From: Chitinophagaceae bacterium UBA2791
Lineage (GTDB): Bacteria > Bacteroidota > Bacteroidia > Chitinophagales > Chitinophagaceae
Length of the DNA: 64,000 nucleotides
Reading direction: 5' to 3'
NCBI GenBank assembly: GCA_002352105.1
Contig: DEHV01000080.1
Coordinates: 5,231 to 69,230 of the forward strand
This document shows, piece by piece, positions 5,895 to 21,289 of the stretch. The notes beneath the pieces were generated by a model. That model was not told where the DNA came from and made no database searches. It was given only the letters and a program-made list of their open reading frames with translations. Made by a program: the position numbers and the translations under genes. Within the stretch, counting starts at the first letter, position 1. Each line of letters opens with the position of its first letter.

Positions 5895-6021
5895 TTATAG
5901 CAATGCTTGTTTAGCGATATTCTTAATTGCCATCCGCAATGGCTTTATGTCGAGGCGTAACTGCCACGGATAAAATTACGAAAGACGACAGGAATCAGCC
6001 TGCCTTTATTTATCTTAAAAA

Positions 6022-8265
6022 TTGAAAATTCCGTCGACACCAGCATTCTTTTTATACCTTGTTGTACTAAACCCGAACCGATCTATCGTGCGCATACTTC
6101 CCGGATTTGTATTCCTTTGCCTGTTGTGTTTACAGCTTGCAGCGCAAAAAAAGAACGACGCCTATCAATTACATATCCGCAAAGCCAGGTCTCCCGTGAA
6201 AGTTGATGGCAGGTCGGATGACGACGCCTGGCAGGATGCCGACAAGGCGACAGATTTCTATATGATCCTGCCCATGGATACCGGCTTTGCCAGGGTGCGC
6301 ACCGAAGTGCGTATGACCTACGATCAACAGCATATCTATCTACTGGCGATAAACTATAATGGGGCGCCGGGCCCATATATGGTTGAATCGCTGCGCCGTG
6401 ATTTTGCTTTTCTCAAGAACGATAACTTCCTGCTGTTCATGGATCCCTTCGACGACCAGACCAACGGTTTTTCCTTCGGCGCCAATGCGGCAGGAGCGCA
6501 GTGGGACGGGCTGATGTATGATGGCGGGAAGGTAGACCTCAGTTGGGATAACAAATGGCGCTCCGTGGTGAAGAATGACGCCGATAAATGGGTTTTCGAA
6601 GCAATGATCCCCTTCAAGTCCATCCGTTATAAAAAAGGCATTACCAAATGGGGCGTCAATTTTGGGAGAAACGATCTGAAGACCTCGGAGAAAAGCAGCT
6701 GGGCCCCGGTGCCCCGGCAATTCCCTTCCGCATCGCTGGCTTATACCGGCGCGCTGATATGGGATACTCCCCCGCCCGACCCCGGCCCCAATATCTCGCT
6801 GATACCTTATCTGCTTGGCGGCGTCAATAAAGACTATTCGACGGGGAAACCTGCAAAATGGCAAAAGGATATAGGGCTGGACGCAAAGATTGCCATCACT
6901 TCTTCGCTTAACCTGGACCTTACCGTAAACCCGGACTTCTCGCAGGTGGACGTAGACAAGCAAGTTACCAACCTGGATCGCTTTGAACTCTTCTTCCCGG
7001 AAAGAAGGCAGTTCTTTCTTGAAAACGGAGACCAGTTCACGAATTTTGGCTACGCAAACATCCGCCCATTCTTTTCCCGACGCATAGGACTGGATGCGCC
7101 TATCCAGTTTGGGGCGCGGCTGAGCGGGAAACTGAATAAGGACTGGCGGCTGGGCTTCATGAATATGCAAACAGGGAAACAGGCTGCCAGCTCCCTGCCA
7201 GCCCAAAACTTTACCGTGGCCGCTCTGCAACGAAGAATATTTACCCGCTCCAACCTGGGGTTCCTCTTGGTCAACAAGGAATCGCTCGGTTATCATCCTG
7301 CAGATCAGAACCCCAATGCTCCTCTGTATTCCCGTTATAACCGGAACCTGGGCTTTGAATACAACCTGGCTTCTTCAAATAATTTCTGGACAGGAAAAGC
7401 CGTAGCGCTAAAATCTTTTAGCCCGGGCAAGAACGGTCATGACTGGACGCATGCCGCCAACCTGAGATACGTCAGCCGTAAATGGAATATAGGCTGGCAG
7501 CATGAATATGTCGGGCGCAACTATACCGCGGAAGCGGGTTATACGCCCAGGACCGGTTACATTAAGCTGATGCCCGAGATCACGCAGCTCTTCTTTCCGA
7601 AGAAGGGCCCTCTGCTGAGCCATGGTCCAAAACTGGTATCAACCAACATCTTCGACGAGAAGATGCAACGCACCGATAATGAGCTGATGGTTTCGTATGC
7701 ATTCGTTTTCCGGAACATCAACACGCTGACCGTCTGGGAGTCTAACATGTTTATCAAGCTGCTAAAACCGTTTAACCCGGTAAATATAGGCATGGATAGT
7801 CTTGCCGCTTTTAGCGAGCATTCCTGGAACTCCGTTGGCTTGGACTATGCGTCCAAGCCCCAGCGCCTTTTTACTTACGCGCTCAGCGCGCAGTATGGCG
7901 GATATTTTGCGAATGGAAAAAGGTTTCGGATCGGCGGAGAACTGGGGTATCGCTTTCAGCCCTATGTAAGTATTGCGCTCAGCGCCAACTATGATAGGCT
8001 GAACCTGCCGCTGCCCTGGGGGGAAAATGATTTCTGGCTTGTCGGGCCCAGGCTGGATATAACAATGACCAATAAACTATTTTTCACCGGGTTTATGCAA
8101 TACAACGAACAGATGAAGAACATAAATCTGAACACTCGGTTTCAATGGCGGTACAGGCCGGCTTCCGATCTGTTTATCGTGTACACGGACAACTATCTTC
8201 CCGAACCCTTTTTTGTTAAGAACAGGGCGTTCGTGTTAAAACTGGTTTACTGGTTAAACATGTAA
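6022..8265 (+). CDS. Carbohydrate-binding family 9-like / DUF5916 domain protein (outer-membrane or secreted)
   Basis: VDGRSDDDAWQDADKATDFY...YDQQHIYLLAI is a CBM9-like N-domain, followed by a long beta-rich C-domain. The real start is probably the in-frame GTG at 6088, which gives the signal peptide (V/M)RILPGFVFLCLLCLQLAAQ. Confidence 0.75.
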   Translation: MKIPSTPAFFLYLVVLNPNRSIVRILPGFVFLCLLCLQLAAQKKNDAYQLHIRKARSPVKVDGRSDDDAWQDADKATDFYMILPMDTGFARVRTEVRMTYDQQHIYLLAINYNGAPGPYMVESLRRDFAFLKNDNFLLFMDPFDDQTNGFSFGANAAGAQWDGLMYDGGKVDLSWDNKWRSVVKNDADKWVFEAMIPFKSIRYKKGITKWGVNFGRNDLKTSEKSSWAPVPRQFPSASLAYTGALIWDTPPPDPGPNISLIPYLLGGVNKDYSTGKPAKWQKDIGLDAKIAITSSLNLDLTVNPDFSQVDVDKQVTNLDRFELFFPERRQFFLENGDQFTNFGYANIRPFFSRRIGLDAPIQFGARLSGKLNKDWRLGFMNMQTGKQAASSLPAQNFTVAALQRRIFTRSNLGFLLVNKESLGYHPADQNPNAPLYSRYNRNLGFEYNLASSNNFWTGKAVALKSFSPGKNGHDWTHAANLRYVSRKWNIGWQHEYVGRNYTAEAGYTPRTGYIKLMPEITQLFFPKKGPLLSHGPKLVSTNIFDEKMQRTDNELMVSYAFVFRNINTLTVWESNMFIKLLKPFNPVNIGMDSLAAFSEHSWNSVGLDYASKPQRLFTYALSAQYGGYFANGKRFRIGGELGYRFQPYVSIALSANYDRLNLPLPWGENDFWLVGPRLDITMTNKLFFTGFMQYNEQMKNINLNTRFQWRYRPASDLFIVYTDNYLPEPFFVKNRAFVLKLVYWLNM

Positions 8266-8465
8266 ATGCAGGAGCCGGGGAATAACTGGATTAAAATGAA
8301 TAGCCGCGGCTTACCGTGACAGAAAGATATTTCGATCAGGCCGGCGCATAACACTGGCTTGAAATCCATCTTTATCCCCGGCCGCACAATATGCCAGGCT
8401 GAGTAATCGTTGCAAGGCGAATCATTGACGATCAAGTTCCAAAAGAAGCTAAGTTTGCAATCTAT

Positions 8466-8987
8466 ATGCGAAATGTTCTTTTACGAAAAATCTCCCAACT
8501 GGTAATCTTTCAGGCAGCGCTATGCGCCCTGGCAACCTACCTGATCTCCCGGATATCCCTAATGGGGCGTATCGGTATCGCGACATTTTACAAGGAATAT
8601 AAATTCCTCCGTTCGCCATGGCAAACCTATCTTTCCATATTCATTATACAACTGCTGATCATTTTATTGCTGTATGCGCTGCACAAGCGATTTCTTGGGA
8701 GGATAACCATACGTGCATCTGTTATTGTACTGATCCTTTCCGCAATAGGGCTCTGGGCTACCTATTATGATTTCCAGCACACTTTTTCCCATAGGGTTCT
8801 CCGGGAGAGATTTCATCTCGGGTTCTATCTTTTCTGGATCGGGCTCATGATCACGAGCCTGTTTTTCATGATTGCCGCCCCTGCGAAAAAGGAAAAAGAT
8901 ATACAAACCCCGTTTCCTGAGGATCCATTGTCCCCAGGCCCTGAGCCATATAAAACCGGAAATAACAACAATACGGGTCTATCCTAA
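8466..8987 (+). CDS. Hypothetical integral membrane protein (4-5 TM helices)
   Basis: Several hydrophobic helices are present. No family was recognised. Confidence 0.45.
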   Translation: MRNVLLRKISQLVIFQAALCALATYLISRISLMGRIGIATFYKEYKFLRSPWQTYLSIFIIQLLIILLLYALHKRFLGRITIRASVIVLILSAIGLWATYYDFQHTFSHRVLRERFHLGFYLFWIGLMITSLFFMIAAPAKKEKDIQTPFPEDPLSPGPEPYKTGNNNNTGLS

Positions 8988-9827
8988 AATAGACCTGCGA
9001 ATCTCGTTGACAAAGGAAAAGGAAACATTAAGCGTAGAAGCAATTTTAGCATCGTCATAATCCGTATGCTGTATCAGACATTTTACAAAATCGGCATTCC
9101 TTTCAGAGGTCGCTTTTTTATAACCCATTTGCATTCCTTCTTCCAGCCCTTGCCGGTAACGCAAATCATTTTTTAAATTGTAAGTAATGGCCATATATTG
9201 TTCCTCCTCCAGAATGATTTGTTGCACACTTCTTAATTCACCAAACACTTCCAATTGCATAAGCTTTTGGTTTAGCTTCTGCAGATCTTTACTTAACAAC
9301 AGCTGCAATTTATATAAAATATTTCTAATAACATCTCTTTTCCTTTCAGGTGTTGATACGCCTGTAAATAAAGCCAGCATTATCTCCTCCGGCACTTCAG
9401 AGTCCAAAAACATCGAAGGATCCAATTCCTTGAAATCTATAATCTTATACCGATAAAACAAGTTGTCAAAGCTTATCTCCTTAGTCATTTTCATCCTTTC
9501 TTCTCCTATATAAATAACAGCTCCAATCACCGGAATCTTATATTTATTCCAGATCATTGCATGATACAAAAGCATCCGGCTACACATATCCATGTCATTT
9601 GAAGCCTGCCATTCTATATGAAGAATGCATTCTTCTTTTTGAGGAGAGCCTATCTTAAATAACATATCCGTTTCTCTCTCAAGCGTACGCTGCAGTTTAC
9701 GCGGGAGTTTAACGATATCCGATACCTCGACTCCCATAACCCTCCTTAACAAAGAAATGGTGGGGCCGTAAAAGCTTTCCTGAATAATTCTGTCGAATTT
9801 ATTAGCCATACCTCTTTCGGCAGTCAA
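8979..9827 (-). CDS. Rpn/YhgA-like PD-(D/E)XK recombination-promoting nuclease / putative transposase family protein
   Basis: ETDMLFKI...ILHIEWQASNDMDMCSRMLLYHAMIW...PVIGAVIYIG matches the aD...hiEfQs..d..m..Rm..Y core of the family. The gene is visibly AT-richer than its neighbours. Confidence 0.6.
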   Translation of the reverse strand: MTAERGMANKFDRIIQESFYGPTISLLRRVMGVEVSDIVKLPRKLQRTLERETDMLFKIGSPQKEECILHIEWQASNDMDMCSRMLLYHAMIWNKYKIPVIGAVIYIGEERMKMTKEISFDNLFYRYKIIDFKELDPSMFLDSEVPEEIMLALFTGVSTPERKRDVIRNILYKLQLLLSKDLQKLNQKLMQLEVFGELRSVQQIILEEEQYMAITYNLKNDLRYRQGLEEGMQMGYKKATSERNADFVKCLIQHTDYDDAKIASTLNVSFSFVNEIRRSILG

Positions 9828-9936
9828 ATTACCAAAAGGGTGAAATAGGCATACAGTGTTCTAACGGCAAAAAAAGGGTATTTTAACGAGGGCAACAGCC
9901 TCACATCAGCATTTTAATGTATCGCGTATCCGGCTT

Positions 9937-10677
9937 CTATTTTTTCAATATATCCCTGACCCAGGTCTCTTTTATAGGATCGCCTTTGGAACTTAATCCG
10001 GAGTGGAGCCACTCGCCGTTTTTAAGACCGGCATCAAAACTAAGGCTTGCCCCCACCCTTTCGCTATCGCGCGAGAAAAATTCGATATGTTCAACGTATT
10101 TGCCATTCTCAAAATCATAAGAGCCGCCGCCTGTTCCGAAAAACTCCTTTGTTTCGGTATTAATAGCAAACCATTGAAACCTTGTAGAAGAAAGTATTTT
10201 GATGGTTTTCCTGGGCGACAGTTTTATCGGATTCATTTTAGATCCATCCCATCTTCCATTGATCCGCCAGCAGCCTGCCAGTCCTTTGTCGCCACGGTCT
10301 ATGCGCGTCCATTCCTGCTTTACACCGTTAAAATGGGTTGTCAGTTTATCCCCCGATATCTCGATCTTCGTAGACAGGGTCTTGCCTACCTTATCCTTCT
10401 CCGCCGAGTTAAATTCTATCTGGATAGTAAGCGTATTACCGGCGAAAGAAGTTACCCCTCCATAGGTATAGTCAAACTTTTTCTGGTCTTTGTTATAGCT
10501 TGTATACGAGGTATAATCATCCTGGAAAACCAACACCTGCTCGCCGGCGCCGGAGGATGATTTCCATGCGCCCTGCAAAGGATTGCTCTGCGCCTGGCTG
10601 CTGGCCAGGAATGGAATAAACGCCAGGGCCAATAAACCGAAGATCGAAAGGGTTGATGTTTTTTTCATATGCGACAA
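9937..10677 (-). CDS. Secreted protein with two lipocalin-like repeats
   Basis: Signal peptide MKKTSTLSIFGLLALAFIPFLASSQA. Two internally similar halves: LQGAWKSS... and LAGCWRINGRW... Confidence 0.55.
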   Translation of the reverse strand: MSHMKKTSTLSIFGLLALAFIPFLASSQAQSNPLQGAWKSSSGAGEQVLVFQDDYTSYTSYNKDQKKFDYTYGGVTSFAGNTLTIQIEFNSAEKDKVGKTLSTKIEISGDKLTTHFNGVKQEWTRIDRGDKGLAGCWRINGRWDGSKMNPIKLSPRKTIKILSSTRFQWFAINTETKEFFGTGGGSYDFENGKYVEHIEFFSRDSERVGASLSFDAGLKNGEWLHSGLSSKGDPIKETWVRDILKK

Positions 10678-10739
10678 TAGTTTTGTTATGCAGTGAATGG
10701 TTCCACAATTTACTTATTATATCGCTTATCCTGCAATTA

Positions 10740-11162
10740 TCATTCCCTTTCCAACCGGAATACTATGGGCTGTTTTTTATACGATTTAACCGGGCGACCA
10801 TTCTGAATCGCCGCCGACCATTTGCCGCTTCTGCGGATAACGCGCTCCGCCTCCTCCCTGAGCTCGTCCGGCCCGCTGATGGCGACCACTTCCGACACCC
10901 TGCCGTTATTGTCGACAATAAACTGCACTACCACGGTTCCTTCTATGCGTGTTTCAATAGCCGCTTCGGGATACCTCAGCGTTTTGCCCAGGTAACGCCT
11001 CCAGGCCTCAATGCCTCCGGGATACGCAGATTCTATTTCCACTGGTATCATTCCCTGGCTCTCGCCGGCGCCAGGCTCCGCGGGCGATTCGATCACGCCG
11101 GTTCCATATGCGGTCGGCGGAGCGGTGATCAGGTCGTCGTCCGGCCCTTCCAGGTTTTCCAA
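10740..11162 (-). CDS. TonB C-terminal domain protein, apparently 5'-truncated (possible pseudogene)
   Basis: YPGGIEAWRRYLGKTLRYPEAAIETRIEGTVVVQFIVDNNGRVSEV...GKWSAAIQNGRPV is a TonB_C fold signature. The only start is a TTG. The frame stays open upstream to ~11300 but has no ATG, signal peptide or TM anchor. Confidence 0.6.
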   Translation of the reverse strand: MENLEGPDDDLITAPPTAYGTGVIESPAEPGAGESQGMIPVEIESAYPGGIEAWRRYLGKTLRYPEAAIETRIEGTVVVQFIVDNNGRVSEVVAISGPDELREEAERVIRRSGKWSAAIQNGRPVKSYKKQPIVFRLERE

Positions 11163-11409
11163 TCCTATCCTCGCATGCGCTAACTCATCTATTTCGGGAG
11201 GTCTGTCTTCCTTACTTGTTTCTTTGTCGGGAACAATAAGAAAAGAAGCATATTTCCTTATCTGGGTTTTCGGCAGCGAAGAACGATGCTTCGGCGGCGG
11301 ATCTCAAAATCCACAGCATCCGGCCCGAAACTACAAGAAGGCAGACCCCATAGCGGGATTATTCTTTATATTGTATCCATTATTTAACCCCTCAAACCAC
11401 GTCTTTTAT

Positions 11410-14040
11410 ATGTCCTCTTCGCAAAGAACTATTATTGCGCATAGTGGTCATCGTGATCTTATAGAAAACGATCTCCAACGCATCTCGGATGCTGTAACGG
11501 AGAAGCTTCTAAAAATATCTTCGGAACAATACGACCGGTTTGTATTGCTCACGGGTATTGCATCGGGAGCCGATTGGCTGGCGGCAAATGCGGCTGCGGG
11601 CCTGGGCATGTCTGTTGTTTTACTAACGCTTTCCGAGCCTGACGAGAACGCCCGTATAGAACAGCTGAAGCGGCAATTCGGCTCCCGCATAACCGTTCGT
11701 CCGGTCCGCCCGGCCCCTGAAGCCCAGTCGTCTTTAGCCGCTTACGAAGCGCTTGCGCAAATACTCGCAGAGGAAGCCGACCATCTGATACTGCTATGGG
11801 ACGGAGTAGATACCGCTAAAGCCGGCGGCTGCTCGGAAGTAGCAAGAAAAGTCATGAATATGCCCGGCAAGGAAAAAGGGTTTCGCGGGCAGCTGCATCA
11901 ACTGATCGTACCCAGGCTTTCCAATAAATATCCGCTATGCAGCAATATCTTCCACGACAACTACAAATTTCCCCCTCCCGGAATTTTTGAATGGGCCACA
12001 ACCGTATTCCCCAAACAGTCGTACCAGGACCGGGTTTCCTGGGCTAACCGATACATTATGTACAATGAAAACTTCTGGCGCTTCCTGCTACCGAGTTTTT
12101 TAGTACTGTTCACCATGGGTCTCGGATACATCGGCTTTCTCCAGTTGGAAAAGACCCTGAACGGCAATGGCGCAGGACCCGTCGCCGCCAATGCCAGGCT
12201 GGACGCATTTTTCAATGCCGCCAACCTGATCACCCTCAACGCATCGGCGCTAAACGTAACGGAAAAGGTCCCGCTGATGCTGAATATCGCGCGATTCACC
12301 GGGCTGCTTTTTATCCTCAACGCCTTTATCGTGGCCTTCATGCTGGCCATCGGCAGCAACAACAAAAACCTGATCCGCTTTTTCCTTTGGAAGCTGGCGG
12401 GATATCACAATATTCATTTGGTCATCGGATTAAACAGTCTCAGCTACCCGCTGGCCATTGCCCTGAAACAACAAGGCGCTAAGATCATCGTGGTAGACAA
12501 AGATCCGGATCCAAATCTCAAAACCGAAGCTTCAAAGCGAGGCGTACGCGTCATGAACGGCAGCGCTCATTCTGCTGCATTCCTGAAACGCATCGGGGCC
12601 CATCGCGCCAGGAATACCTATATTCTTGAAACGGAGGATATGGAAAACATCAGAACCCTTCATGAACTGGACCAGCTATGGGCCCAATTTCCGGATACGG
12701 AAAAGCAATGTTATGTTCAGCTCAAAACATCGCGCGCCGCTGAATTCATAGGAAGACCAGGCAGGCTCTCCAGCCATGTTAATGTCAGAAGATTTAATTT
12801 TCATGAAACGATCAGCCGCAAGCTGCTGATCCGATACCCGGCGGACCGGTTCCGGCCTGGCTCGCATTCAGGCGCCGAAATACTCCTGTTCGGTTTTGGA
12901 GAGATGGGCAGACAACTCCTGCTCAGCCTGTTACAGGTCCTGCAACCGGATGCTTCCCGCCGCATCAATATTACCGTTTTCTGTAAGGATGCTGCGGCAG
13001 AGAAGGACTCGTTCTTTCAGCAGTACCCCTGCTTATGGCACGACGCTGTTCACAACCCTCTTTATGAAAAATCCTATGCTAAAAAAATAAGAGCATTGAT
13101 TTTCCCGGAAGACATGGTGGTATTCAAAGAACTTCCCTTATCAGACGCGCTTTATTTCAACGATACATCCCTGGTAAGAGCGCTCTCCGGGAACTGCGCG
13201 GCAACCTTCTATTTCTGCCTGGAAGAAGCGGCGCTAAACGCCGCCTATCTTCATGGACTATTGGGTAAAATCGGTCAGCGCGATCTGGACCTTCAACTTT
13301 TCTGTTATTTCAACCTTCCGGGAGAAAAGGAGACGGACCATGTCGCTTATATACTGAACAACCAGATCCCGCATACTCCTGTAATATTATTCGGACGCAT
13401 GGAAGAAGAATGCCGGGCCCTGGCTGCGGAAGATTTCACCATTGACGACCTGGCCGCGCTCATCAACTACTGGTACGCCTATAAAACGCCGGCCAGGGAA
13501 TGGATCGCAAAACCCCGAACAGTGATCCGACTGGCCCGGGAGGACTGGAAAGTATTGCCCTATGCCCATCAGGAAAGCAGCCGTCAGGCAGCAGATCATA
13601 TTTGGCCAAAGCTTCGTCATATCGGCGTCTCGCCGGATCAGCTGCGCCGCTCTTTAGCAGATAGCGACAAAAGAAAACAACTGCTCGCCGAAGCTGCGGA
13701 ATCTGACAATGAAAAATACCTGCAACTCTCGCGAATGGAGCAACGGCGCTGGTGCGCAGAGAAACTGCTCAGCGGTTTCCTTCCTTTACAGGATGTATAC
13801 CCCGACAGTATTGAAAATATCCGGGGATGGATCTCGAAATGGAACGACCCCGATGATCCTGGCTTTAAGAAAAAATACCAATCGCAAAAATTACATATCG
13901 ACCTGGTTCCATTCGATGAGTTGTTTGACGGCGTTATCAACATCAGGGGATCTGCGAGGGCCCATTCCGAAAAAAACAAGGACAGCGCACAGATCGAAGG
14001 CATTCCGTATTTTCTGTATGTGTTGTTCAACAGCAAATAA
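11410..14040 (+). CDS. Multidomain membrane protein: SLOG (YpsA/LOG-like), 2 TM helices, two Rossmann/TrkA_N-like domains and a RyR domain
   Basis: The first ATG in the long ORF lies beyond the antisense overlap with the TonB fragment, giving 876 aa. Domain motifs are listed in the sub-features. A 35-nt gap separates it from the downstream TIR-STING gene. Confidence 0.8.
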   Translation: MSSSQRTIIAHSGHRDLIENDLQRISDAVTEKLLKISSEQYDRFVLLTGIASGADWLAANAAAGLGMSVVLLTLSEPDENARIEQLKRQFGSRITVRPVRPAPEAQSSLAAYEALAQILAEEADHLILLWDGVDTAKAGGCSEVARKVMNMPGKEKGFRGQLHQLIVPRLSNKYPLCSNIFHDNYKFPPPGIFEWATTVFPKQSYQDRVSWANRYIMYNENFWRFLLPSFLVLFTMGLGYIGFLQLEKTLNGNGAGPVAANARLDAFFNAANLITLNASALNVTEKVPLMLNIARFTGLLFILNAFIVAFMLAIGSNNKNLIRFFLWKLAGYHNIHLVIGLNSLSYPLAIALKQQGAKIIVVDKDPDPNLKTEASKRGVRVMNGSAHSAAFLKRIGAHRARNTYILETEDMENIRTLHELDQLWAQFPDTEKQCYVQLKTSRAAEFIGRPGRLSSHVNVRRFNFHETISRKLLIRYPADRFRPGSHSGAEILLFGFGEMGRQLLLSLLQVLQPDASRRINITVFCKDAAAEKDSFFQQYPCLWHDAVHNPLYEKSYAKKIRALIFPEDMVVFKELPLSDALYFNDTSLVRALSGNCAATFYFCLEEAALNAAYLHGLLGKIGQRDLDLQLFCYFNLPGEKETDHVAYILNNQIPHTPVILFGRMEEECRALAAEDFTIDDLAALINYWYAYKTPAREWIAKPRTVIRLAREDWKVLPYAHQESSRQAADHIWPKLRHIGVSPDQLRRSLADSDKRKQLLAEAAESDNEKYLQLSRMEQRRWCAEKLLSGFLPLQDVYPDSIENIRGWISKWNDPDDPGFKKKYQSQKLHIDLVPFDELFDGVINIRGSARAHSEKNKDSAQIEGIPYFLYVLFNSK
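11425..11859 (+). other. SLOG domain (YpsA/LOG/DprA superfamily) of the 876-aa protein
   Basis: IIAHSGHRDL, VLLTGIASGADWLAANAA (glycine-rich loop after a beta-strand), ADHLILLWDG and AGGCSEVA (compare LOG PGGxGTxEE). Collinear with B. subtilis YpsA motifs ITGYKPHELG / ISGQLGVELWAAEVV / LLLLYD. Confidence 0.6.
12076..12354 (+). other. Two-TM module with an intervening pore-helix-like segment
   Basis: TM1 is FWRFLLPSFLVLFTMGLGYIGFL and TM2 is VPLMLNIARFTGLLFILNAFIVAFMLAI. The connecting LDAFFNAANLITLNAS resembles the K+-channel pore helix and filter (DALYFSVVTLTTVGYG) but lacks GYG. Confidence 0.4.
12409..13404 (+). other. Two tandem Rossmann (TrkA_N/RCK-like) domains
   Basis: The first, IHLVIGLNSLSYPLAIALKQQGAKIIVVDKD, has a degenerate GxGxxG. 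The second, ILLFGFGEMGRQLL, has an intact GxGxxG. Confidence 0.5.
13447..14019 (+). other. RyR (ryanodine-receptor repeat) domain region
   Basis: W..LPYAHQESSRQAADHIWPKLRHIG and EQRRWCAEKLLSGF...KLHIDLVPFDEL...EKNKDSAQIEGIP match the bacterial RyR-domain pattern (He.W..ek...GW...hp.lvpydeL...eK..dr..v..ip). Confidence 0.55.
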
Positions 14041-14075
14041 ACATTGATAAGAATGCTCAACCTAAAACCTTAGCA

Positions 14076-14540
14076 ATGAAACCAGAGATCATCCTGTTCT
14101 CTTCTTCCGGAAGTTATGTTATTGCAGAAAGCATTTATACTAACCTGAAAGACAACCATTCAGTTACCTTATGGAGGCAGTTTTTCGGAGAGAACAGGAC
14201 TACTCCGCTCTGGACCTTCTTCAAAAAACTGTTTCACTACGACTACGCGATCCTTGTGCTGGCTAACGACAGCATTATCTATGATAAGGTAAGCGAAAAC
14301 CATCAAGCCTGGATACCAAAAGACAATGTGATATTTGAGCTCGGCGCCACAATGGCAAGACTGGGCCCTCAGAAAACCATCTTGCTCGTTCCCGATCAGC
14401 CGCAGGTGCGCCTACCCGGCTATTTCGACGATGTACAACCCCTGCTTTTCACCTATCATAACCAGGAACACTTTACCGAAGAAGAGAAAATTGCCGCCAC
14501 AGCCGAAGCCGCCCGCAGCATATCAGCAACACTCGACAAC
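14076..14540 (+). other. TIR-like (CAP12/PF10137-type) domain
   Basis: IILFSSSGSYVIAESIYTNL, DYAILVLANDS and PKDNVIFELGATMARLGPQKTILLV match vFIgSSse...fDfAvfvltpDD...aRdNVifElGlf.G.LG..rv.ll. The putative catalytic Glu88 is encoded at nt 14337-14339. Confidence 0.8.
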
Positions 14541-15104
14541 GCTGGATCAGAGGCATTTCATGCAGAACTGCCGGCGCAGGGCCTGGCTCATGCCTACCTC
14601 AATAATTTTTTCTTCCCGGTGCGTCTCTCCAATATCCCCCAGGAATTAAACATTGACGGGCAAACGCTTTTATGGGCCCCCGAAGCGGGAATGAGTTTTA
14701 CCATTATCATACCGGAAGAGATCATGGGAAGAGAAAAGGCCAACCGCTATTTCGAAAACCTGTCGCAATGCCGCCGGGTCAGTTTCCGGGCAAACGACGG
14801 CAGGGACCTGGGCTTGTATGTTTTGCCGAGAAAAACCGAAAATGATCCCCTTCATATTCTCGACATACCCACTACGCTGCTGACTGCCGAAAACATCATT
14901 GAACGTATTGAAAGGTTCTGGAGGGATAAGGACAAAGAAAGGGTATTACAGACAGATAATGAGTTTACAGCCGCGTTGAAAACAAGAGAGATCCTGAACT
15001 TTGAACGAACGCTGCACAGTATGGTAGACGGCAGGTTCGATAACGTCTATATTGTCGCCGGCAAAGATCTTCCGGAGCATCTTGCCATGCTGCAATCGCT
15101 ATAA
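14076..15104 (+). CDS. TIR-STING fusion protein (CBASS-type NADase effector architecture)
   Basis: 342 aa. It combines an N-terminal TIR-like domain with a C-terminal STING fold; see the sub-features. Confidence 0.85.
   Translation: MKPEIILFSSSGSYVIAESIYTNLKDNHSVTLWRQFFGENRTTPLWTFFKKLFHYDYAILVLANDSIIYDKVSENHQAWIPKDNVIFELGATMARLGPQKTILLVPDQPQVRLPGYFDDVQPLLFTYHNQEHFTEEEKIAATAEAARSISATLDNAGSEAFHAELPAQGLAHAYLNNFFFPVRLSNIPQELNIDGQTLLWAPEAGMSFTIIIPEEIMGREKANRYFENLSQCRRVSFRANDGRDLGLYVLPRKTENDPLHILDIPTTLLTAENIIERIERFWRDKDKERVLQTDNEFTAALKTREILNFERTLHSMVDGRFDNVYIVAGKDLPEHLAMLQSL
14568..15101 (+). other. STING cyclic-dinucleotide-binding domain
   Basis: QGLAHAYLNNFFFPV aligns with human HGLAWSYYIGYLRLILP, FTIIIPEE with LYILLPLD, GRDLGLYVL with DRVYSNSIYEL and HILDIPTTLLT with CVLEYATPLQTL. 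Confidence 0.75.
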
Positions 15105-15142
15105 ACCATTTGCCGCATCGGAATAATACTTACCTGTAACGG

Positions 15143-16729
15143 TTAGCTCCACCGGTCGGGATCCGCCATCGCATAGTCCTGTTCATATTTTTCCGGAATA
15201 TTATTGTTTATCATACAGCCCTCTTCCAACGAGGGGAAGATATCTTCCAGCGTGGTCACTTCGTTCCTGAATATCCGGCGATAGATATGCGACCGGGTAA
15301 GATTAGACGAGCGATCGATCCCTGCGGAACCCATTAGCTCGACAAAATTCTTAACCGTCTCCCGGTGATAGTTTGCCACGCGTGTTTTTTTATCGGCCAC
15401 TACCAGTCCCACGCTTAGCGATGGATTTTGCGTAGCCACTCCCGTAGGGCACTTATTGGTATGGCATTGTAGCGCCTGAATGCATCCGAGGGCCATCATC
15501 ATGGCGCGGGCGCTGTTACAACAATCTGCCCCCAAAGCGATAGCCCTCAACAGGTGAAAACCCGTTAATATTTTTCCCGATGCAATGATACGGATATGCT
15601 TACGGATCCCGAAGCCTACCAGCATATTCTGCACGAAGGCAAGTCCATCCATCATGGGCGCGCCCACATGGTTGGAAAATTCCTGCGGCGCGGCCCCGGT
15701 TCCGCCCTCGCCGCCGTCTACCGTAATAAAATCGGGGTATATATCCAGCGCTATCATCGCTTTGCAAATACCGATGAATTCACTTTTTCTACCTACGCAT
15801 AATTTTATTCCCACCGGTTTTCCATTCGACAATTTGCGCAGCTGATGAAGAAACAATACCAGCTCGCGGGGCGTATTAAAAGCAGTGTGATAGGGGGGCG
15901 AATAAACCGCAGTATAGGGTTGCACATGGCGAATGGCCGCAATCTCAGGCGTATTTTTCCTGGCAGGCAGGATCCCCCCATGCCCCGGTTTAGCGCCTTG
16001 CGACAATTTCAGCTCGATCATTTTTATCTGCGGTATCGAAGCGTTTTTGGCAAACAGCTCAGGAGAAAAATTTCCCTGCTCATCGCGACAGCCAAAATAG
16101 CCCGTTCCTATCTGCCAGATGATATCGCCGCCGGGCTTCAGATGATAGGGGCTGATCCCTCCCTCGCCGGTATTGTGCGCAAAACCGCCCAGCCTGGCGC
16201 CTGCGTTAAGCGCTTCAATTGCGTTGCTGCTAAGGGAGCCGAAGCTCATCCCCGACACATTAAAAATACTGGCGCTATAGGGTTGGGTACAATCTTTATT
16301 GCCTATAAGCGCTCGGGGGTTATGGTCCAGCTGATGAAAATCTTTGGGAGCGATAGAATGGCTCAACCACTCATAGCCTTCTTCATATACGTCCAGCTGC
16401 GTTCCAAAAGGCATGGTATCCAGCTCGCTCTTTGCGCGTTGATAGATCGTTGACCTGTCGATCCGGTTAACGGGTCGTCCGTCGATATCAGACTCTATAA
16501 AATACTGGTACAGCTTGGGACGAAGCGTCTCCATCCAATACCGCATACGCCCCACGATCGGGAAGGTCCGCATAAGAGAGTGTTTGGTCTGCGTCATATC
16601 AAAAACGCCCATCGCTCCTAAGATCAATGCAATAACCAGCAATATGTACCAGGCGCCGTTCACAAAATAACCCAGCAGCGCGCCAGCCAATATGGCAATA
16701 ATTTCGAATACGATAAACTCCTTTCGCAT
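15143..16729 (-). CDS. FMN-binding glutamate synthase family protein (GltB domain-2-like) with N-terminal TM helices
   Basis: LKLSQGAKPGHGGILP, ITVDGGEGGTGAAP, ASGKI and CNSARAMMMALGCIQA..CHTNKCPTGVATQ. Confidence 0.9.
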   Translation of the reverse strand: MRKEFIVFEIIAILAGALLGYFVNGAWYILLVIALILGAMGVFDMTQTKHSLMRTFPIVGRMRYWMETLRPKLYQYFIESDIDGRPVNRIDRSTIYQRAKSELDTMPFGTQLDVYEEGYEWLSHSIAPKDFHQLDHNPRALIGNKDCTQPYSASIFNVSGMSFGSLSSNAIEALNAGARLGGFAHNTGEGGISPYHLKPGGDIIWQIGTGYFGCRDEQGNFSPELFAKNASIPQIKMIELKLSQGAKPGHGGILPARKNTPEIAAIRHVQPYTAVYSPPYHTAFNTPRELVLFLHQLRKLSNGKPVGIKLCVGRKSEFIGICKAMIALDIYPDFITVDGGEGGTGAAPQEFSNHVGAPMMDGLAFVQNMLVGFGIRKHIRIIASGKILTGFHLLRAIALGADCCNSARAMMMALGCIQALQCHTNKCPTGVATQNPSLSVGLVVADKKTRVANYHRETVKNFVELMGSAGIDRSSNLTRSHIYRRIFRNEVTTLEDIFPSLEEGCMINNNIPEKYEQDYAMADPDRWS

Positions 16730-16923
16730 ATCCCTGTTTTTAATCTCTGTCAGAAATATACAAAGTTAAAGGCTTATCTCATATTCGATCGATATGTTCG
16801 TTGGCGAACGCTATCCGGTTAAATTTCTTTTGGGAACACACGGATATTATCAAAATATGAATATGACAGGCCCATGTTATTCTCACGTTCCATTAACATC
16901 TTCTCATGTTTTAATGATTATTT

Positions 16924-17295
16924 TTGACCGTTATGCTCGCGTTAATCGCCGGCATGCGCAACCTTCGTTCACCAGCCAATAATAACCTGTTAATGATAAA
17001 CATCAATGCGTTAAGAAACCCTGTAGAGAGACTAAGGATAACGGCAATACTGGAAGGATGGTCATTAATTATCTTACTAGCCATTGCGATGCCCTTAAAA
17101 TACCTGGCCGACAAGCCAGAAGCCGTGCAGGTTATAGGGATGATCCATGGCTTGCTCTTCATCGCTTATATCCTCCTCGTTGTCCAGATAAAATTCATTC
17201 TCGGGTGGTCTCTGGGCAAAACCCTACTGGCGATGATCGCCTCGACCATTCCCTTCGGCACTTTCTATGTAGAAAGAAAATGGCTGAGAAAATAG
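16924..17295 (+). CDS. DUF3817 family integral membrane protein
   Basis: LRITAILEGWSLIILLAIAMPLKYLADKPEAVQVIGMIHGLLFIAYILLV. The true start may be the ATG at 16993. Confidence 0.65.
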   Translation: MTVMLALIAGMRNLRSPANNNLLMININALRNPVERLRITAILEGWSLIILLAIAMPLKYLADKPEAVQVIGMIHGLLFIAYILLVVQIKFILGWSLGKTLLAMIASTIPFGTFYVERKWLRK

Positions 17296-17658
17296 GATTA
17301 AGAGCACCAGGCACGGTTCCTCCTCAATAGCGCTTAAAGCCGTTTTCGGGGATTCGCTTTTTCCTACCAAATTTCAGCCCCGGTTTTAATGATTCATTTC
17401 CATCTTATGGAATTCCGGACCCATCGTTGTATTTCAATTATTCGTTTATTGATATTCGTCAAATTGTCCGGCGTTACCGTTGCTGTCTGAACGCTGTAAA
17501 CTACATACTACCTGGTTTGGGATCGCAACCTAAGATACGCCGCCGTATAAAATAGGGCAAAAGCGTACCTCCTAAATCGTTAATTTTAATAAAGCGGATA
17601 TTATAAAAGACACGCCGCATGGCTTGCTTATCCTGCATCGTTTTCTACCTGAATAAAC

Positions 17659-18519
17659 ATGATTAAAAAAGCGCTAATGGGAAAAATTATATATCCTTAT
17701 CAGAATACTTCTCTAAAAGATTTATCGCAAGAGAAATGGAAAGATATTCCCGGCTTTGAGGGTCTATATCAGCTATCAAATTATGGCCGGATAAAATCCC
17801 TGGAAAGATGGATTGATACGGGCCGGTTTGATTCGCTAAAATCTGAAAGGATTGTTAAACCACGAATAGTTATATCTCCTAAGGGAGATGTTAGTTTACA
17901 GATGAAACTACATAAGGAACGAAAACGATATTGCTTTTCTGTAGCCCGATATGTATATTTTCTTTTTATAAATCCTTTTGATTTGGACGATCAGTCGCTC
18001 GTTGTCACTTTCAGGAATGGCGATCATTTATTCTTGCGCCATAAAAATCTGAAATTACAAACGCGCAGTGAAGTAGCCAAATCGGTCATTTATACCGGCA
18101 AACGCATAAGAAGATCCCAGTCAAACATCAAACCGGTAACGCAATACGATATGCAGGGGAAAAGAGTAGCCGTTTTTGAAAGTACCGTGGCTGCCGCGCA
18201 AGCGACCGGACATCACAAAAGCCTTATAAGCGGCGCTTTGTCTGGCTCCCTGCTCACCGCCGGAGGCTTTATCTGGAGAAAAGGCAAGGGGAAGTCCCGC
18301 ATTGACGCATCTGCTGTTCGGAAAAGGCTTGCTAAAAGACATCAGAGTAGCAGCAAAAAGGTAGCCCAATTCACCCTGAGAGGCCGGAAAATAGCCGTCT
18401 TCGCCAGTTTCGTAGAAGCGGCGAAAAAAGTGGGTGGAAGTCCCAAACAAATATCCCATGCCGCAAGAGGAATATCCTGGACTTCCTATGGGTATAAATG
18501 GGAACTAGAAGATGATTAA
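17659..18519 (+). CDS. NUMOD4 + 2x NUMOD1-like homing-endonuclease-related DNA-binding protein (HNH apparently degenerate)
   Basis: WKDIPGFEGLYQLSNYGRIKS is a NUMOD4 motif. Two C-terminal repeats, VTQYDMQGKRVAVFESTVAAAQATG..GGFIWRK and VAQFTLRGRKIAVFASFVEAAKKVG..YGYKWE, look NUMOD1/IENR-like. The gene is AT-rich. Confidence 0.55.
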   Translation: MIKKALMGKIIYPYQNTSLKDLSQEKWKDIPGFEGLYQLSNYGRIKSLERWIDTGRFDSLKSERIVKPRIVISPKGDVSLQMKLHKERKRYCFSVARYVYFLFINPFDLDDQSLVVTFRNGDHLFLRHKNLKLQTRSEVAKSVIYTGKRIRRSQSNIKPVTQYDMQGKRVAVFESTVAAAQATGHHKSLISGALSGSLLTAGGFIWRKGKGKSRIDASAVRKRLAKRHQSSSKKVAQFTLRGRKIAVFASFVEAAKKVGGSPKQISHAARGISWTSYGYKWELEDD

Positions 18520-18579
18520 TTTAAATAGTGAAAAAAGATTACGGCCTACCCTTTAGAATTTAGCCGTCGATCCGTTTCC

Positions 18580-19755
18580 CTATTTATTAAAATACTCCTT
18601 CAAAACTTCCTCCAAGACCGTTAGGTCATCATCATACCCCAATTGAACCGACTGAACATTATGGTAGATGAGAACCCCTTGCTTATCGATTAAAAAGTAC
18701 TGCGGAGAATAAGATATATTATACAGCGATTTCAGCGATGTTGTGTCCCGGTACGCTTCAATATCGCATGTCTGAAGCCATGGCATCGGGAGAGACTCCA
18801 ACCTTCGCCTCCATGTTGCTTCCTGAAGGTCAGTAGATATCCACAACAACTGCAACCCCTTGGCTGCATATGTTTTCGCGATTTCCCTGATATGTGGAAT
18901 ATGCCTGATACACGGAGCACAGCCGGAATGCCAGAACCCGATCAGCGCTAAGCCGGAACGATTAAGTTCAGATACGCGGTATAGCTTATGGTCGCTCGAA
19001 CGAAACCAGAAATCCGGCATCTTTCGACCGATACTCAAGCTTTTTAATATATCAAAATATTCCGAAACTTTACCTCCCAGTTGAGTCTTTCGAAGACTGG
19101 GATCAAATACAGAGAAAAGAGCGGACAGACTATCGGTGCTTATTAAAAAGTCATACATTACCCTCTCTTCGAAAATGGTCAAAGCGTAATAAGATGAAGC
19201 ATTTTCTTTTATAAAGTCAATTCTTCTTTTCTTCTCCTCGATATAAAGCCGATCATAAACTTCCTGCAAATAGTTTGTATCAAGACTCGTAGTTTTCACC
19301 TTTTTTGCGTACCGAAGGAGATTAAATATTTTTCGAGCAGAATCCTCAATGGATACAACAGTCTGCTGATAGTCGCGCTGCTCCTTCAGAAAGGGTATAT
19401 TTATAAATCTCGCTGCAGACCCTATCTGATCGCCGGCGACGCTTGAATCGATTGAAACTTCTGAGTTGCCCGGTTGAACAAAAAAAGTAAAAGACCATAA
19501 CGGTTCGCTCCCCTGGCGAATATCTAGATATACTTTCTCGTATTCCTGTTCCAGGTTTCCAGAAAAACTGAAAGCGCCATTTTTTATGCTAGTTATCGTA
19601 CGCTCTTTGTTCACAAAACGATACAGCGACGCTTCGGCGTTTTCGAAACGTTGAGGCGTCGCTCCATTAATAACAAACGACGATTGAGAGTACAACTCGA
19701 AATCCCATCCCAGCAATAATGTCGAGAGCAATAGCAGACGTAGGATCTTTTGCAT
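18580..19755 (-). CDS. TlpA-family thiol:disulfide oxidoreductase (thioredoxin fold) with N-terminal DUF4369-like domain
   Basis: Signal peptide, then the CxxC motif FWHSGCAPCIRHIP in a C-terminal redoxin domain. Confidence 0.75.
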   Translation of the reverse strand: MQKILRLLLLSTLLLGWDFELYSQSSFVINGATPQRFENAEASLYRFVNKERTITSIKNGAFSFSGNLEQEYEKVYLDIRQGSEPLWSFTFFVQPGNSEVSIDSSVAGDQIGSAARFINIPFLKEQRDYQQTVVSIEDSARKIFNLLRYAKKVKTTSLDTNYLQEVYDRLYIEEKKRRIDFIKENASSYYALTIFEERVMYDFLISTDSLSALFSVFDPSLRKTQLGGKVSEYFDILKSLSIGRKMPDFWFRSSDHKLYRVSELNRSGLALIGFWHSGCAPCIRHIPHIREIAKTYAAKGLQLLWISTDLQEATWRRRLESLPMPWLQTCDIEAYRDTTSLKSLYNISYSPQYFLIDKQGVLIYHNVQSVQLGYDDDLTVLEEVLKEYFNK

Positions 19756-19924
19756 TCGAGATGGTTTTTACATGATAAGGCGAATTATTACTGAAGCCTG
19801 ACGATGCATTTCTATCAAAACATCCCGATATACCTTTTGGGGCAACAGAGGACTAATATGCTCCGCCCCCGATTTTACAGGCTATAACAAAGCCATCGCC
19901 ATCATGAGATGCTATACCGTCTCC

Positions 19925-21289
19925 TTATCCCAATGCCGCTTTCGCCACGCGGAGGGTGTTGCCTCCGATAATTTTGCGGATGGTTTCGTCGGAGTAGCCC
20001 ATCTGCACCATGCCTACGGTGAACAGGGGCCAGTTGGTCCAGGCCATACTTTGCCGCATGGCTTCGGTTTCCTTATAATCATCGGGGGGCCAGAGGGCTT
20101 CCCACCGGGTTCTTGAAGAAGGCCTTGGAGCGGTTATTTTCTTTCCTTCTTCCGCTGCATACTGGGAACGATGACCATAATCTGTGCCTATCGCGACATG
20201 ATCGCTTCCGAATTTTTTTACGACATAATCGATATGTTTCATCATCGCGGCGATATCGCCGGAACCGCCAAGAAAACGCGGTATGCAGCAAATGCCGATA
20301 TAGCCGCCGGTATCGGCGATCGCGCGGATCACATTATCGGGTTTGGAGCGGATATGTTTGTTTATGGAAGCTACCGTAGTATGGCTCGCAACCATTGGCC
20401 GCTGCGATACCTGAGCGGCTTCCAGGCTGGTCTGCCAGCCGGAGTGCGCGATGTCGACGATCACGCCCACCTTGTTCATCTCTTTTACCACGGCGCGGCC
20501 GAAATCGCTGAGCCCGCCATTGGCAGGCTCAGCACAACCGTCGCCGATCACATTGCGGCGATTATAGGTAAGATGCATCATCCGGATGCCAAGCTGGAAA
20601 AATATACGGATATACCGCAGCTCTTCTTCTACTGAAACCCATTCCTGCGGCAGGGGAACGCCATTGCCCGTAAAATACAGCGCATGACGATTCTCTTTTT
20701 TTGCGTGCAGGATATCATCCGGAGTTGCCGCCTTGCTGAGAAAGCCGCGCAGCATATCCGTGGTATAGGTAAACCGCGCAAGGCGTTTGAGCAGGCGCTT
20801 GATCTCGTTGCCTTCTTCGCCTGCATTCTGGATAACGCAGGTAACGCCCGAAGCCTTGAACGCGTTCTCCAGCTCCTCTCTTTCCCGCTGGCTGATCACG
20901 TACCGGGTCATAGACATTTCTTCCTGCAGGTCCTGCATTTCGAGCTGAGAAGCATGATCGCCAAGCGCTTTATTGAGGATGGCGCCATCATGGGCGGCGG
21001 TGGGTATAAATCCATAGGTATCGATCACCACGGAGTTCCGGTGCAATTCCAACCCATGCTCTAATTGTCTTTTTGTAGGCTTTAAAATATTTAATCCCCT
21101 GTCAAATGCTTCCTTGATCTTATCGGTCATCTTAAACGGGCTATCGGTAATATTTTGGGAGGCGACGGGCTGACGAAGCTTGCTTTTATCATTGTCCGTG
21201 GCTAATGTAAATCCGCTCAGCGCTCCGCCGGCCGCGGTCAGGCCAGCCAAACCAGTCAATTTTAGAAAATCTCTTCTTTTGTTTTTCAT
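19925..21289 (-). CDS. Membrane dipeptidase (peptidase M19) with Tat signal
   Basis: The twin-arginine signal is MKNKRRDFLKLTGLAGLTAAGG. M19 motifs are HLTYNRRN, DIAHSG, ASHTT and IGTDYG. Confidence 0.85.
   Translation of the reverse strand: MKNKRRDFLKLTGLAGLTAAGGALSGFTLATDNDKSKLRQPVASQNITDSPFKMTDKIKEAFDRGLNILKPTKRQLEHGLELHRNSVVIDTYGFIPTAAHDGAILNKALGDHASQLEMQDLQEEMSMTRYVISQREREELENAFKASGVTCVIQNAGEEGNEIKRLLKRLARFTYTTDMLRGFLSKAATPDDILHAKKENRHALYFTGNGVPLPQEWVSVEEELRYIRIFFQLGIRMMHLTYNRRNVIGDGCAEPANGGLSDFGRAVVKEMNKVGVIVDIAHSGWQTSLEAAQVSQRPMVASHTTVASINKHIRSKPDNVIRAIADTGGYIGICCIPRFLGGSGDIAAMMKHIDYVVKKFGSDHVAIGTDYGHRSQYAAEEGKKITAPRPSSRTRWEALWPPDDYKETEAMRQSMAWTNWPLFTVGMVQMGYSDETIRKIIGGNTLRVAKAALG

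Follow-up and report, generated by a model that had tools for sequence, protein, structure and literature searches.

A TIR–STING gene of a Chitinophagaceae bacterium is half of a conserved two-gene cassette with a channel-like SLOG–RCK membrane protein and no cyclase

We analyzed a stretch of 64,000 nucleotides (64 kb; hereafter the window) of Chitinophagaceae bacterium UBA2791 (contig DEHV01000080.1), in which an earlier note had described the open reading frame (ORF) at 14076-15104 as an orphan STING with a TIR-like domain. We find an intact-looking TIR–STING gene at this position, judging from its sequence, and directly upstream of it a gene for an 876-aa membrane protein (the partner), predicted to combine a SLOG domain, a pore-like transmembrane (TM) module, two RCK domains, and a region resembling the repeats of ryanodine receptors (RyR; Table 1). 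The TIR–STING and the SLOG-channel protein form a conserved, co-diverging, and mobile two-gene cassette without a cyclase; the description as an orphan is therefore misleading, since the TIR–STING is only half of this unit.

Searches of Pfam, PADLOC, and the PDB agree on the identity of the TIR–STING. Two Pfam families match above their gathering scores, CAP12-PCTIR_TIR (PF10137) over residues 10-114 (E=3.7e-11) and prok_STING (PF20300) over residues 166-313 (E=1.3e-13); and the PADLOC “Effector TIR” model PDLC00729 for cyclic-oligonucleotide-based antiphage signaling systems (CBASS) matches the protein end to end (E=5.7e-33). The PDB sequence matches are SfSTING (7UN8, E=4e-9), a second TIR–STING (9LMQ, E=7e-7), a PycTIR, and a STING domain. 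The NCBIfam equivalog model for Cap12 (NF050172) gives the protein 79.9 bits against a cut-off of 450, which leaves it outside that model. The exact protein is present on six independent contigs, one of them from the metagenome-assembled genome (MAG) GCA_035440665.1.

We aligned the protein with 39 homologs sharing 34% to 100% sequence identity. The codon given earlier for the catalytic glutamate of the TIR domain (E88) was verified; E88 pairs with E84 of SfSTING in the alignment to 7UN8, and is invariant among the homologs. The catalytic E84 and the NAD+ pocket residues have been defined in SfSTING (PMC9402430): its F6, S10, W33, F37, R78, and N80 correspond to F8, S10, W33, F37, K82, and N84 here. 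In the STING half, F178, R243, Y248, D263, P265, and T266 are likewise invariant, so the ligand pocket stays conserved once properly aligned, and the earlier picks of the phenylalanine in AYLNNF as the pocket aromatic residue and of the D-x-P-T-T motif as part of the pocket both stand. In PcSTING, F171 stacks on the base, R233 contacts the Hoogsteen edge of guanine (and was compared with human R232), H238 is assigned to the lid, and D252 reads guanine N2 (Ko et al., PMC8748872). The arginine in GRDLGLY is indeed an invariant pocket residue (R243), but it had been equated with the wrong human residue: it is the counterpart of R232, and of the bacterial specificity arginine (PcSTING R233 / SfSTING R234), and the R238-like position is occupied by Leu245 (PcSTING Y235 / FsSTING R153).

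The lid thus reads R-D-L, as opposed to R-x-(Y/F) in class I and R-x-R in class II STINGs. We considered this lid as the mark of a changed ligand and dropped the idea, because relatives that are linked to a CdnE cyclase, such as P0048 (R-D-[MLIV]-S-V-Y), have the same lid. More generally, the pocket and catalytic residues are indistinguishable from those of CdnE-linked relatives, which argues against a radically different STING ligand; and because the pocket determinants match, including the R-D-[aliphatic] lid, a guanine-containing 3′3′ cyclic dinucleotide is most likely still what this STING binds. Two substitutions of the partner clade close to the pocket floor, G173A and S271A, leave some room for a different ligand. 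Compared with the Cap12 TIR–STINGs of CBASS (SfSTING 7UN8, PcSTING, MySTING, and 9LMQ), the protein has the same two domains, catalytic glutamate, and NAD+ pocket residues, and the same stacking phenylalanine, lid arginine, and aspartate in the STING pocket; it differs from them in the 8-residue insertion (Table 1) and in a D118-D119 pair, specific to the partner clade, which adjoins the position aligned with D110 of SfSTING, an active-site residue contributed by the dimer mate.

The start of the partner gene was placed at the ATG at 11410 by alignments of homologs. A 1009-aa reading (start at 11011) was rejected: its first 133 codons overlap a TonB_C gene (10740-11162, reverse strand) and have no counterpart in homologs. 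NCBI uses the 876-aa form, and JGI and Logan the long form. The AlphaFold2 model of the partner (pLDDT 75.8, pTM 0.72) consists of a Rossmannoid domain (aa 1-200), TM1, a short helix, a conserved loop, TM2, two Rossmann domains, and a helical tail.

The earlier note had mentioned a SLOG-containing neighbor, and structure comparison bears this out. Modeled alone (pLDDT 83, pTM 0.84), the N-terminal domain displays the Rossmannoid fold and glycine-rich loops of the SLOG superfamily. Its best Foldseek matches are ShosA (8ZVA, E=1.2e-5) and DprA (3UQZ, 3MAJ, and 5MLL, E=3e-5 to 2e-4), followed by LOG proteins (5WQ3 and 1RCU, E ~5e-3) and a molybdenum cofactor carrier. Matches to the Pfam YAcAr SLOG family at the N-terminus are below threshold, yet they recur in three members. 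Invariant motifs of the domain are H11-x-G13-H14-R15, G49-x-A-x-G53-A-D55, and W130-D-G-V-D134…K137-x-G139-G140.

The hydropathy profile of the partner has two TM peaks, and the loop between them, N272-L-I-T275-L-N277-A-S279, is invariant in homologs ranging from 26% to 100% identity. The only Pfam match above threshold is TrkA_N (E=4.6e-11). A profile of 15 partner homologs matched RCK domains in the PDB (Kch RCK 1ID1, 2.5e-4; TrkA; and MthK), and the best Foldseek match of the whole partner is GsuK at E=2.6e-7 (alignments reach 548 columns, and that to full-length 4GX2_B spans 545), with further matches to the TrkA ring, MthK, Slo1, and Slo2.2; the GsuK entries 4GX1 and 4GX2 were deposited as ADP- and NAD-bound. 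In the model, the partner has the topology of GsuK and MthK (TM1, pore helix, TM2, then RCK). It therefore resembles the RCK-gated 2TM channels (GsuK 4GX0/1/2, MthK, Slo1/Slo2, and the TrkA ring) in its predicted TM1–pore helix–loop–TM2 arrangement and, like GsuK, in having two RCK domains per chain; it differs from them in its pore loop (see below), in the additional N-terminal SLOG and C-terminal RyR-like regions, and in the degenerate motif of RCK1 (G340-L-N342), RCK2 keeping the canonical G495-F-G-x-x-G500. The similarity of the C-terminal region to RyR repeats is weak: the PDB profile match to the RyR2 repeat 4ETV has E=2.3e-3, and Pfam RyR (PF02026) matches in two homologs with E ~3e-3 (18 bits against a cut-off of 27.4 bits). 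Motifs that are invariant there are A727-A-D-H730-x-W732, R780-W781, and K-L-H829-x-x-L-V-P. No SIR2 domain was found in the partner by Pfam. From the model, the partner appears to be a channel-like pore protein, and three of its regions are candidate regulatory modules.

Table 1. Features of the cassette (window coordinates) and selected TIR–STING relatives with the genes beside them
Feature	Position	Strand	Extent or identity	Description	Basis
Partner gene	11410-14040	+	876 aa	predicted SLOG – 2TM pore-loop – RCK1 – RCK2 – RyR-like	AlphaFold2, Foldseek, Pfam
SLOG domain	11410-12009	+	aa 1-200	predicted	domain model, Foldseek, sub-threshold Pfam
Membrane module	12067-12351	+	aa 220-314	predicted TM1 220-250, pore-helix-like 260-275, loop, TM2 289-314	DSSP of model
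Tandem RCK/TrkA-N Rossmann domains	12412-13479	+	RCK1 aa 335-475, RCK2 aa 489-690		Pfam, Foldseek
Helical C-terminal region	13507-14037	+	aa 700-876	RyR-repeat-like	PDB profile, sub-threshold Pfam
Intergenic spacer	14041-14075	+	35 nt	between partner gene and TIR–STING	sequence
TIR–STING gene	14076-15104	+	342 aa	ATG to TAA	ORF translation, Pfam, PADLOC, PDB
TIR NADase domain	14076-14555	+	aa 1-160	predicted catalytic E88 = 14337-14339	alignment to 7UN8
STING domain	14565-15101	+	aa 164-342	predicted to bind cyclic dinucleotides	Pfam, alignment
F178 (in AYLNNF)	14607-14609	+		counterpart of PcSTING F171
Lid R243-D-L245…Y248 (in GRDLGLY)	14802-14819	+			alignment
D263-I-P-T-T	14862-14876	+		D263 = counterpart of PcSTING D252
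Clade-specific insertion in STING domain		+	aa 283-290	8 residues	alignment
P0005			70%	~900-aa TrkA_N gene directly upstream; unrelated flanks
P0006			62%	partner on opposite strand; NB-ARC/TPR STAND gene between
P0013 (Chitinophaga ginsengisoli)			56%	~900-aa TrkA_N gene directly upstream; unrelated flanks
P0024 (Pedobacter)			49%	gene of the partner family (~900 aa) directly upstream, without a Pfam match; unrelated flanks	partner HMM
P0048			41%	canonical SMODS + E2-CBASS + TIR–STING operon

The partner gene and the TIR–STING gene are probably co-transcribed, because a scan of the spacer between them found no terminator-like site (promoter and terminator counts were otherwise at chance level); the corresponding spacers in loci L005, L007, and L008 are about 10-58 nt long. 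We scanned one genome per GTDB species for TIR–STING genes, and analyzed the loci with local hidden Markov models (HMMs). Each of the 12 distinct loci examined with a TIR–STING at least 49% identical to the one in the window has the partner; the nine species loci in this range, all with the partner, belong to four Chitinophaga, one Flavihumibacter, one Pedobacter, and three MAGs (Chitinophagaceae, Sphingobacteriaceae, and Bacteroidetes). In 9 of the 12 loci the partner is directly upstream on the same strand; it is on the opposite strand in L006, L020, and L023, and a STAND NTPase gene lies between the two genes in L006 and L020. Outside the Chitinophaga group the flanks of these loci are otherwise unrelated. 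The pairwise identities of the partners correlate with those of the TIR–STINGs (r=0.93, Mantel p ~2e-4, 12 distinct loci). Defense genes are found near several of the loci, including AbiH, KAP NTPase, PycTM, and nSTAND/CHAT genes (precomputed Pfam matches), and RmrA, TIR-pAgo-like, CapP, and SAVED-TIR genes near six further loci (PADLOC). We found no relative of the partner in IMG/VR or PLSDB, and the PLSDB matches of the TIR–STING are limited to the TIR domain of unrelated plasmid proteins.

We also checked whether a cyclic-dinucleotide synthase is encoded nearby. The window contains 53 non-overlapping ORFs of at least 80 aa, each of which was scanned against Pfam or had precomputed Pfam matches; seven of them have no Pfam match at all. 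At Pfam sensitivity none of the 53 matches SMODS/CD-NTase (the CdnE-type nucleotidyltransferases), GGDEF, or DisA_N; iterative HMMs seeded on four cyclases from beside other TIR–STINGs found none in the window; and the regular expression GG[DE]EF has no match in it. At Pfam/HMM sensitivity, the reported absence of a recognizable cyclase from the 64 kb is therefore confirmed. The 12 related loci likewise show no cyclase within ~6-10 kb of the cassette; they were searched by precomputed Pfam matches (L005-L008), by HMMs, and by PADLOC, the last on 39 ORFs that flank the cassette in six further loci. A CdnE conserved in synteny had been named as the finding that would undo the claim: CdnE and an E2-like gene occur only beside relatives of 35-41% identity (L010/11, a Verrucomicrobia MAG, and Akkermansia), and at none of the 12 loci of at least 49%. 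These relatives also served as positive controls, in which CdnE and the E2-like gene were readily detected (L010/11, L027, and L028), together with PADLOC Cyclase matches beside L032 and L046. Unlike CBASS, the operon thus has neither the CdnE cyclase that defines such a system nor a Cap2/E2-like gene, and the TIR–STING is always paired with the partner instead.

Two further relatives lack a cyclase. Downstream of P0025 (50% identity; L157, 5431-8188) is encoded a 535-aa protein that has a CAP12-type TIR at its C-terminus and an N-terminal region of unknown nature, and P0032 (40% identity; L159, 8001-9005) is solitary among housekeeping genes, between an MFS transporter gene and a sulfatase gene. 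Among more distant TIR–STINGs, whose neighbors we considered as divergent CD-NTases, cyclases were identified only in L032, L046, and, by clustering, L075; the neighbors tested in L009, L026, L029, L030, L031, L033, L045, and L093 had no PADLOC match. Because of P0025, P0032, and these distant contexts, we conclude that lack or loss of a cyclase in cis is common on this branch of the TIR–STING family. As a separate observation, TIR–STINGs of 24-27% identity have recurrent neighbors of their own (clusters C12/C13 in L030, L062, and L093; C23-C25 in L033 and L036); the members tested are not PADLOC cyclases, and they may represent new STING-associated systems or very divergent CD-NTases.

These results bear on two alternatives. 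The cassette could belong to a CBASS that has been split, in which an unlinked CdnE-type cyclase makes cyclic di-GMP (c-di-GMP) on infection, the TIR–STING is its Cap12 effector, and the partner is either a second effector for the same nucleotide or a functionally unrelated neighbor. We consider this quite unlikely. It would fit the pocket and catalytic residues shared with CdnE-linked relatives, and the window covers 64 kb of a ~114-kb contig in an incomplete MAG; but nine species carry the two-gene unit, in contexts that are unrelated and lack a cyclase within ~6-10 kb, and a mobile effector that needs an unlinked cyclase would usually land in genomes without one. The score of 80 bits against 450 for the Cap12 equivalog also speaks against it, and an unrelated neighbor fits poorly with two genes that are obligately paired and co-diverge, and with a partner that recurs beside a second STING fusion (see below). 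That the locus is the decaying remnant of a CBASS operon, with the TIR–STING non-functional or being lost after the cyclase, is an idea that we can hardly credit: the missing cyclase and the existence of truly solitary TIR–STINGs (L159) would fit it, but the ORF is full-length, its catalytic and pocket residues are invariant across homologs from 34% to 100% identity, the arrangement is kept in nine species, and the exact protein occurs on six independent contigs.

The partner belongs to a broader family. Its profile retrieves 348 representative clusters at E<=1e-30, and of the best 150, about one third extend over the SLOG region. The SLOG-less homologs (many of 600-660 aa, from metagenome loci) have no STING neighbor. 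Full-length relatives of only 25-32% identity, however, have a STING gene within ~3 kb in L099, L101, and L103/L013, where STING is fused to a nucleoside-2-deoxyribosyltransferase-like domain instead of TIR. Because these distant partner relatives again adjoin STING genes, the pairing is not chance adjacency; what is constant across the family is a SLOG-bearing membrane protein together with an N-glycosidase–STING fusion. The rest of the locus varies. In L012 (2254-9044; TIR–STING of 47% identity), a 593-aa SLOG–TM protein without the RCK and RyR-like regions replaces the partner upstream, preceded by a STAND/TPR gene and accompanied by two small ORFs; and L012, L006 (1521-9032), and L020 (94-11029) all encode a STAND NTPase of ~900-1100 aa (NB-ARC/AAA_16 + TPR; cluster C7). 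In L013, L015, and L016, the operon of the partner also encodes a 555-aa protein, an nSTAND1 NTPase, and a TPR/DUF2610 protein. The 555-aa protein, tried as a hidden cyclase, has no Pfam or PDB sequence match; it is a candidate for an unrecognized signal-generating enzyme.

Two observations on these relatives stand apart. The operon in L013 is part of a larger system (4591-14975; also in L015, L016, and L103) around a 26%-identical partner, in which the TPR/DUF2610 protein has 760 aa and to which a 184-aa protein and, in convergent orientation, a nucleoside-deoxyribosyltransferase-like–STING gene also belong. In L108 (1614-5353) and L114 (8701-11440), SLOG-less channel homologs have a separate SLOG gene next door, fused in L108 to a DUF4231/SLATT-like TM domain; this resembles a split version of the partner architecture, and no STING was detected at these loci.

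The large number of channel homologs, of which the SLOG-less ones have no link to STING, would also be compatible with a physiological module, in which STING reads housekeeping c-di-GMP or c-di-AMP and tunes an RCK-gated cation channel for ion homeostasis, the two being coupled by TIR-made messengers of the ADP-ribose (ADPR) type or by NAD+ levels. RCK channels and c-di-AMP are classically tied to K+ homeostasis, and the cassette in the window lies amid housekeeping genes. We nevertheless regard this as improbable, as the cassette is rare and patchily distributed with varying flanks, which is typical of mobile defense genes, has defense genes as neighbors in other genomes, and occurs in variants with STAND NTPases; a filament-forming NADase would, moreover, be a drastic tool for homeostasis.

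Among known systems, the nearest precedent is type X Thoeris, which consists of a TIR protein and a predicted ion-channel effector, ThsK; defense was verified experimentally for the system of Bacillus sp. BH32, and the signal made by its TIR is not known (10.64898/2025.12.03.692087). The survey behind the new Thoeris types left aside any TIR in a CBASS context, and STING goes unmentioned in it (10.64898/2025.12.03.692087). As in type X, we find a two-gene operon with a TIR protein beside a channel-like membrane protein; the differences are the fusion of TIR to STING, which would imply gating by a cyclic dinucleotide as opposed to direct sensing of phage, the Bacteroidota host, and the SLOG, tandem RCK, and RyR-like domains of the partner. 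Like Thoeris more generally, the cassette has a TIR gene adjacent to an effector-like gene with a ligand-sensor domain (SLOG). In type I Thoeris, the SLOG domain of ThsA binds TIR-made 3′cADPR, a cyclic ADPR (10.64898/2025.12.03.692087); ThsA (SIR2–SLOG) is thus the logical template for coupling a TIR to a SLOG, with the differences that the output here would be a membrane pore/RCK module as opposed to SIR2, and that the SLOG domain is nearer to ShosA, DprA, and LOG. Receptors without an adjacent cyclase, which take their signal from elsewhere, have also been described: a TIR-SAVED effector that senses host c-di-AMP functions in the absence of its cyclase (10.1101/2025.06.19.660554), and standalone eukaryotic STINGs without a cGLR bind 3′3′-c-di-GMP (10.1101/2025.09.04.674280). 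These are single proteins, in contrast to the STING of the cassette, which is bacterial, from a Bacteroidota host, and accompanied by a second conserved gene.

Putting these results together, our preferred reading, which we hold tentatively and rate as not quite an even chance, is a relay in which STING senses a c-di-GMP-like ligand from outside the cassette and NAD+ cleavage by TIR gates the SLOG/RCK channel. The STING dimer would still recognize a 3′3′ cyclic dinucleotide of the c-di-GMP type, made not by the cassette but by a host enzyme encoded elsewhere or by the invader; binding would activate the TIR domain, as in SfSTING filaments, and the activated TIR would cleave NAD+. The NAD+-derived product (ADPR or a cADPR isomer), the fall in NAD+, or both might then be read by the SLOG domain and/or RCK2 of the partner, opening a pore that is not K+-selective, so that ion gradients would collapse and the infection be aborted. 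The TIR–STING would in effect be a ligand-gated, ThsB-like signal generator, and the partner an effector like ThsA or ThsK. What the ligand is and where it is made, which of the two proteins signals to the other, that the partner conducts ions, and that the cassette serves in defense are inferred; and of the three origins that the earlier note proposed for the ligand (a cyclase in trans, the invader, or a different ligand altogether), none can be singled out from the present data.

A more specific form of the relay draws on eukaryotic channels. In TRPM2 the SLOG/MHR1-2 region binds ADPR, and ryanodine receptors contain RyR repeats and are linked to cADPR through Ca2+ release. The partner appears to unite SLOG and RyR-like modules in one predicted pore protein, beside a TIR of the NADase type; it differs in having two TM segments as opposed to six, and its RyR-like match is weak (E ~2e-3). 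Eukaryotic cation channels regulated by NAD+-derived nucleotides have been discussed in the context of Thoeris (10.64898/2025.12.03.692087). We treat the resemblance as a lead, and not as established functional homology. That a cyclase-free STING senses an invader or host cyclic dinucleotide and that its TIR-made messenger opens a pore with a TRPM-type SLOG and RyR-type repeats seems to us doubtful.

Several points weigh against the relay. Neither ThsA nor TRPM2, nor any other TRPM structure, is among the best 50 PDB matches listed by Foldseek for the SLOG domain, and with DprA and ShosA (DNA-binding or of unknown ligand) as the nearest SLOGs, binding of an ADPR-type ligand is suggested by analogy only. 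The family-wide comparison of the pore loop shows no K+ selectivity filter of the TVGYG type (T-[VI]-G-[YF]-G): the loop reads NLITLNASA in the partner, with the consensus NLxT[FL][ND][SA]S in STING-linked members and GFLVL[SG]MG in SLOG-less relatives; and the assignment as a channel, and ion conduction with it, is read from the modeled fold alone. Depletion of NAD+ alone is how canonical TIR–STINGs kill, which leaves no obvious need for a second effector. The two-gene cassette leaves the source of the STING ligand unexplained, and the variants with STAND NTPases (L006, L020, L012, and L013) hint at a protein-based upstream sensor that a two-gene model does not include. Finally, some TIR–STINGs have neither a cyclase nor the partner (L157 and L159), so a lost cyclase does not go specifically with a gained partner.

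The main rival to the relay reverses the order of the two proteins, with the partner upstream as the sensor: the membrane protein would detect infection and activate or release the TIR–STING, whose NAD+ depletion would be the sole killing step. The RCK domains could read an ion or membrane perturbation, or the DprA-like SLOG incoming DNA or nucleotides, and the signal could be handed over by direct contact or by a SLOG-derived small molecule. We think this unlikely, although a cassette without a cyclase requires some sensor, the nearest SLOG structures are the DNA-binding DprA and ShosA, RCK domains sense ions and nucleotides, the partner gene is the first in the operon, and the insertion in STING, together with surface substitutions, could form an interface for the partner. 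Against it, the guanine-reading pocket of STING stays invariant, which is hard to explain without activation by a cyclic dinucleotide; we know of no SLOG enzyme that makes cyclic dinucleotides; and a P-loop pore that carries a gating ring usually belongs to an effector or output device.

The window has a Bacteroidota-like gene content, including SusC/SusD genes, a type IX secretion system signal domain, and ECF/FecR genes. Rfam searches found no riboswitch or structured RNA, either at E<=1 on 10600-15400 (including the 250-nt leader) or at gathering thresholds on the 64 kb. Patches of low GC content at 8000-11000 and 16000-20000 (0.42-0.44, against ~0.49 elsewhere) flank the cassette; the first contains a YhgA/Transposase_31-like gene (8979-9827, reverse strand), and the second a gene for a NUMOD4/NUMOD1 homing-endonuclease-like DNA-binding protein (17659-18519, forward strand). 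The two patches could have arisen by separate insertions and mark a variable region. Farther away, 53000-61700 contains a cluster of LuxR-type response regulator and histidine kinase genes, in which the ORFs without a Pfam match at 54306-55112 and 58634-59320 (each ahead of a kinase gene) and at 61014-61691 may encode membrane sensor subunits. A 130-aa DUF1016_N fragment (32965-33357), probably of a truncated YhcG-like nuclease gene, adjoins a DUF5053 ORF between a polysaccharide utilization locus and an ECF sigma factor gene.

Burroughs and Aravind are said to have catalogued STING fusions in 2020. Our full-text literature searches found no link of bacterial STING with SLOG, RCK, TrkA-N, or channel partners, although an earlier in silico mention is possible. 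In the prevailing view, bacterial STING is the effector of a CdnE cyclase encoded alongside it. Here a clade of at least nine species, and deeper relatives with another STING fusion, lack the cyclase and have a SLOG/RCK channel-like protein instead, and we infer a STING-based system of the defense type with a new partner; defense-system finders would miss the cassette, or file it wrongly as a partial CBASS. If the module is functional, bacterial STING signaling would extend beyond CBASS, the activator of a cyclase-less STING (a host second messenger, an invader product, or the partner protein) would become testable, and a connection would exist between STING and Thoeris-style logic, with its TIR-made messengers and membrane effectors. 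The mix of domains in the partner also bears on the origin of eukaryotic channels gated by NAD+ metabolites. Should the proposed relay from STING through TIR to a SLOG channel prove true, it would add a new class to the STING immune pathways and provide a prokaryotic antecedent of the ADPR- and cADPR-gated cation channels TRPM2 and RyR.

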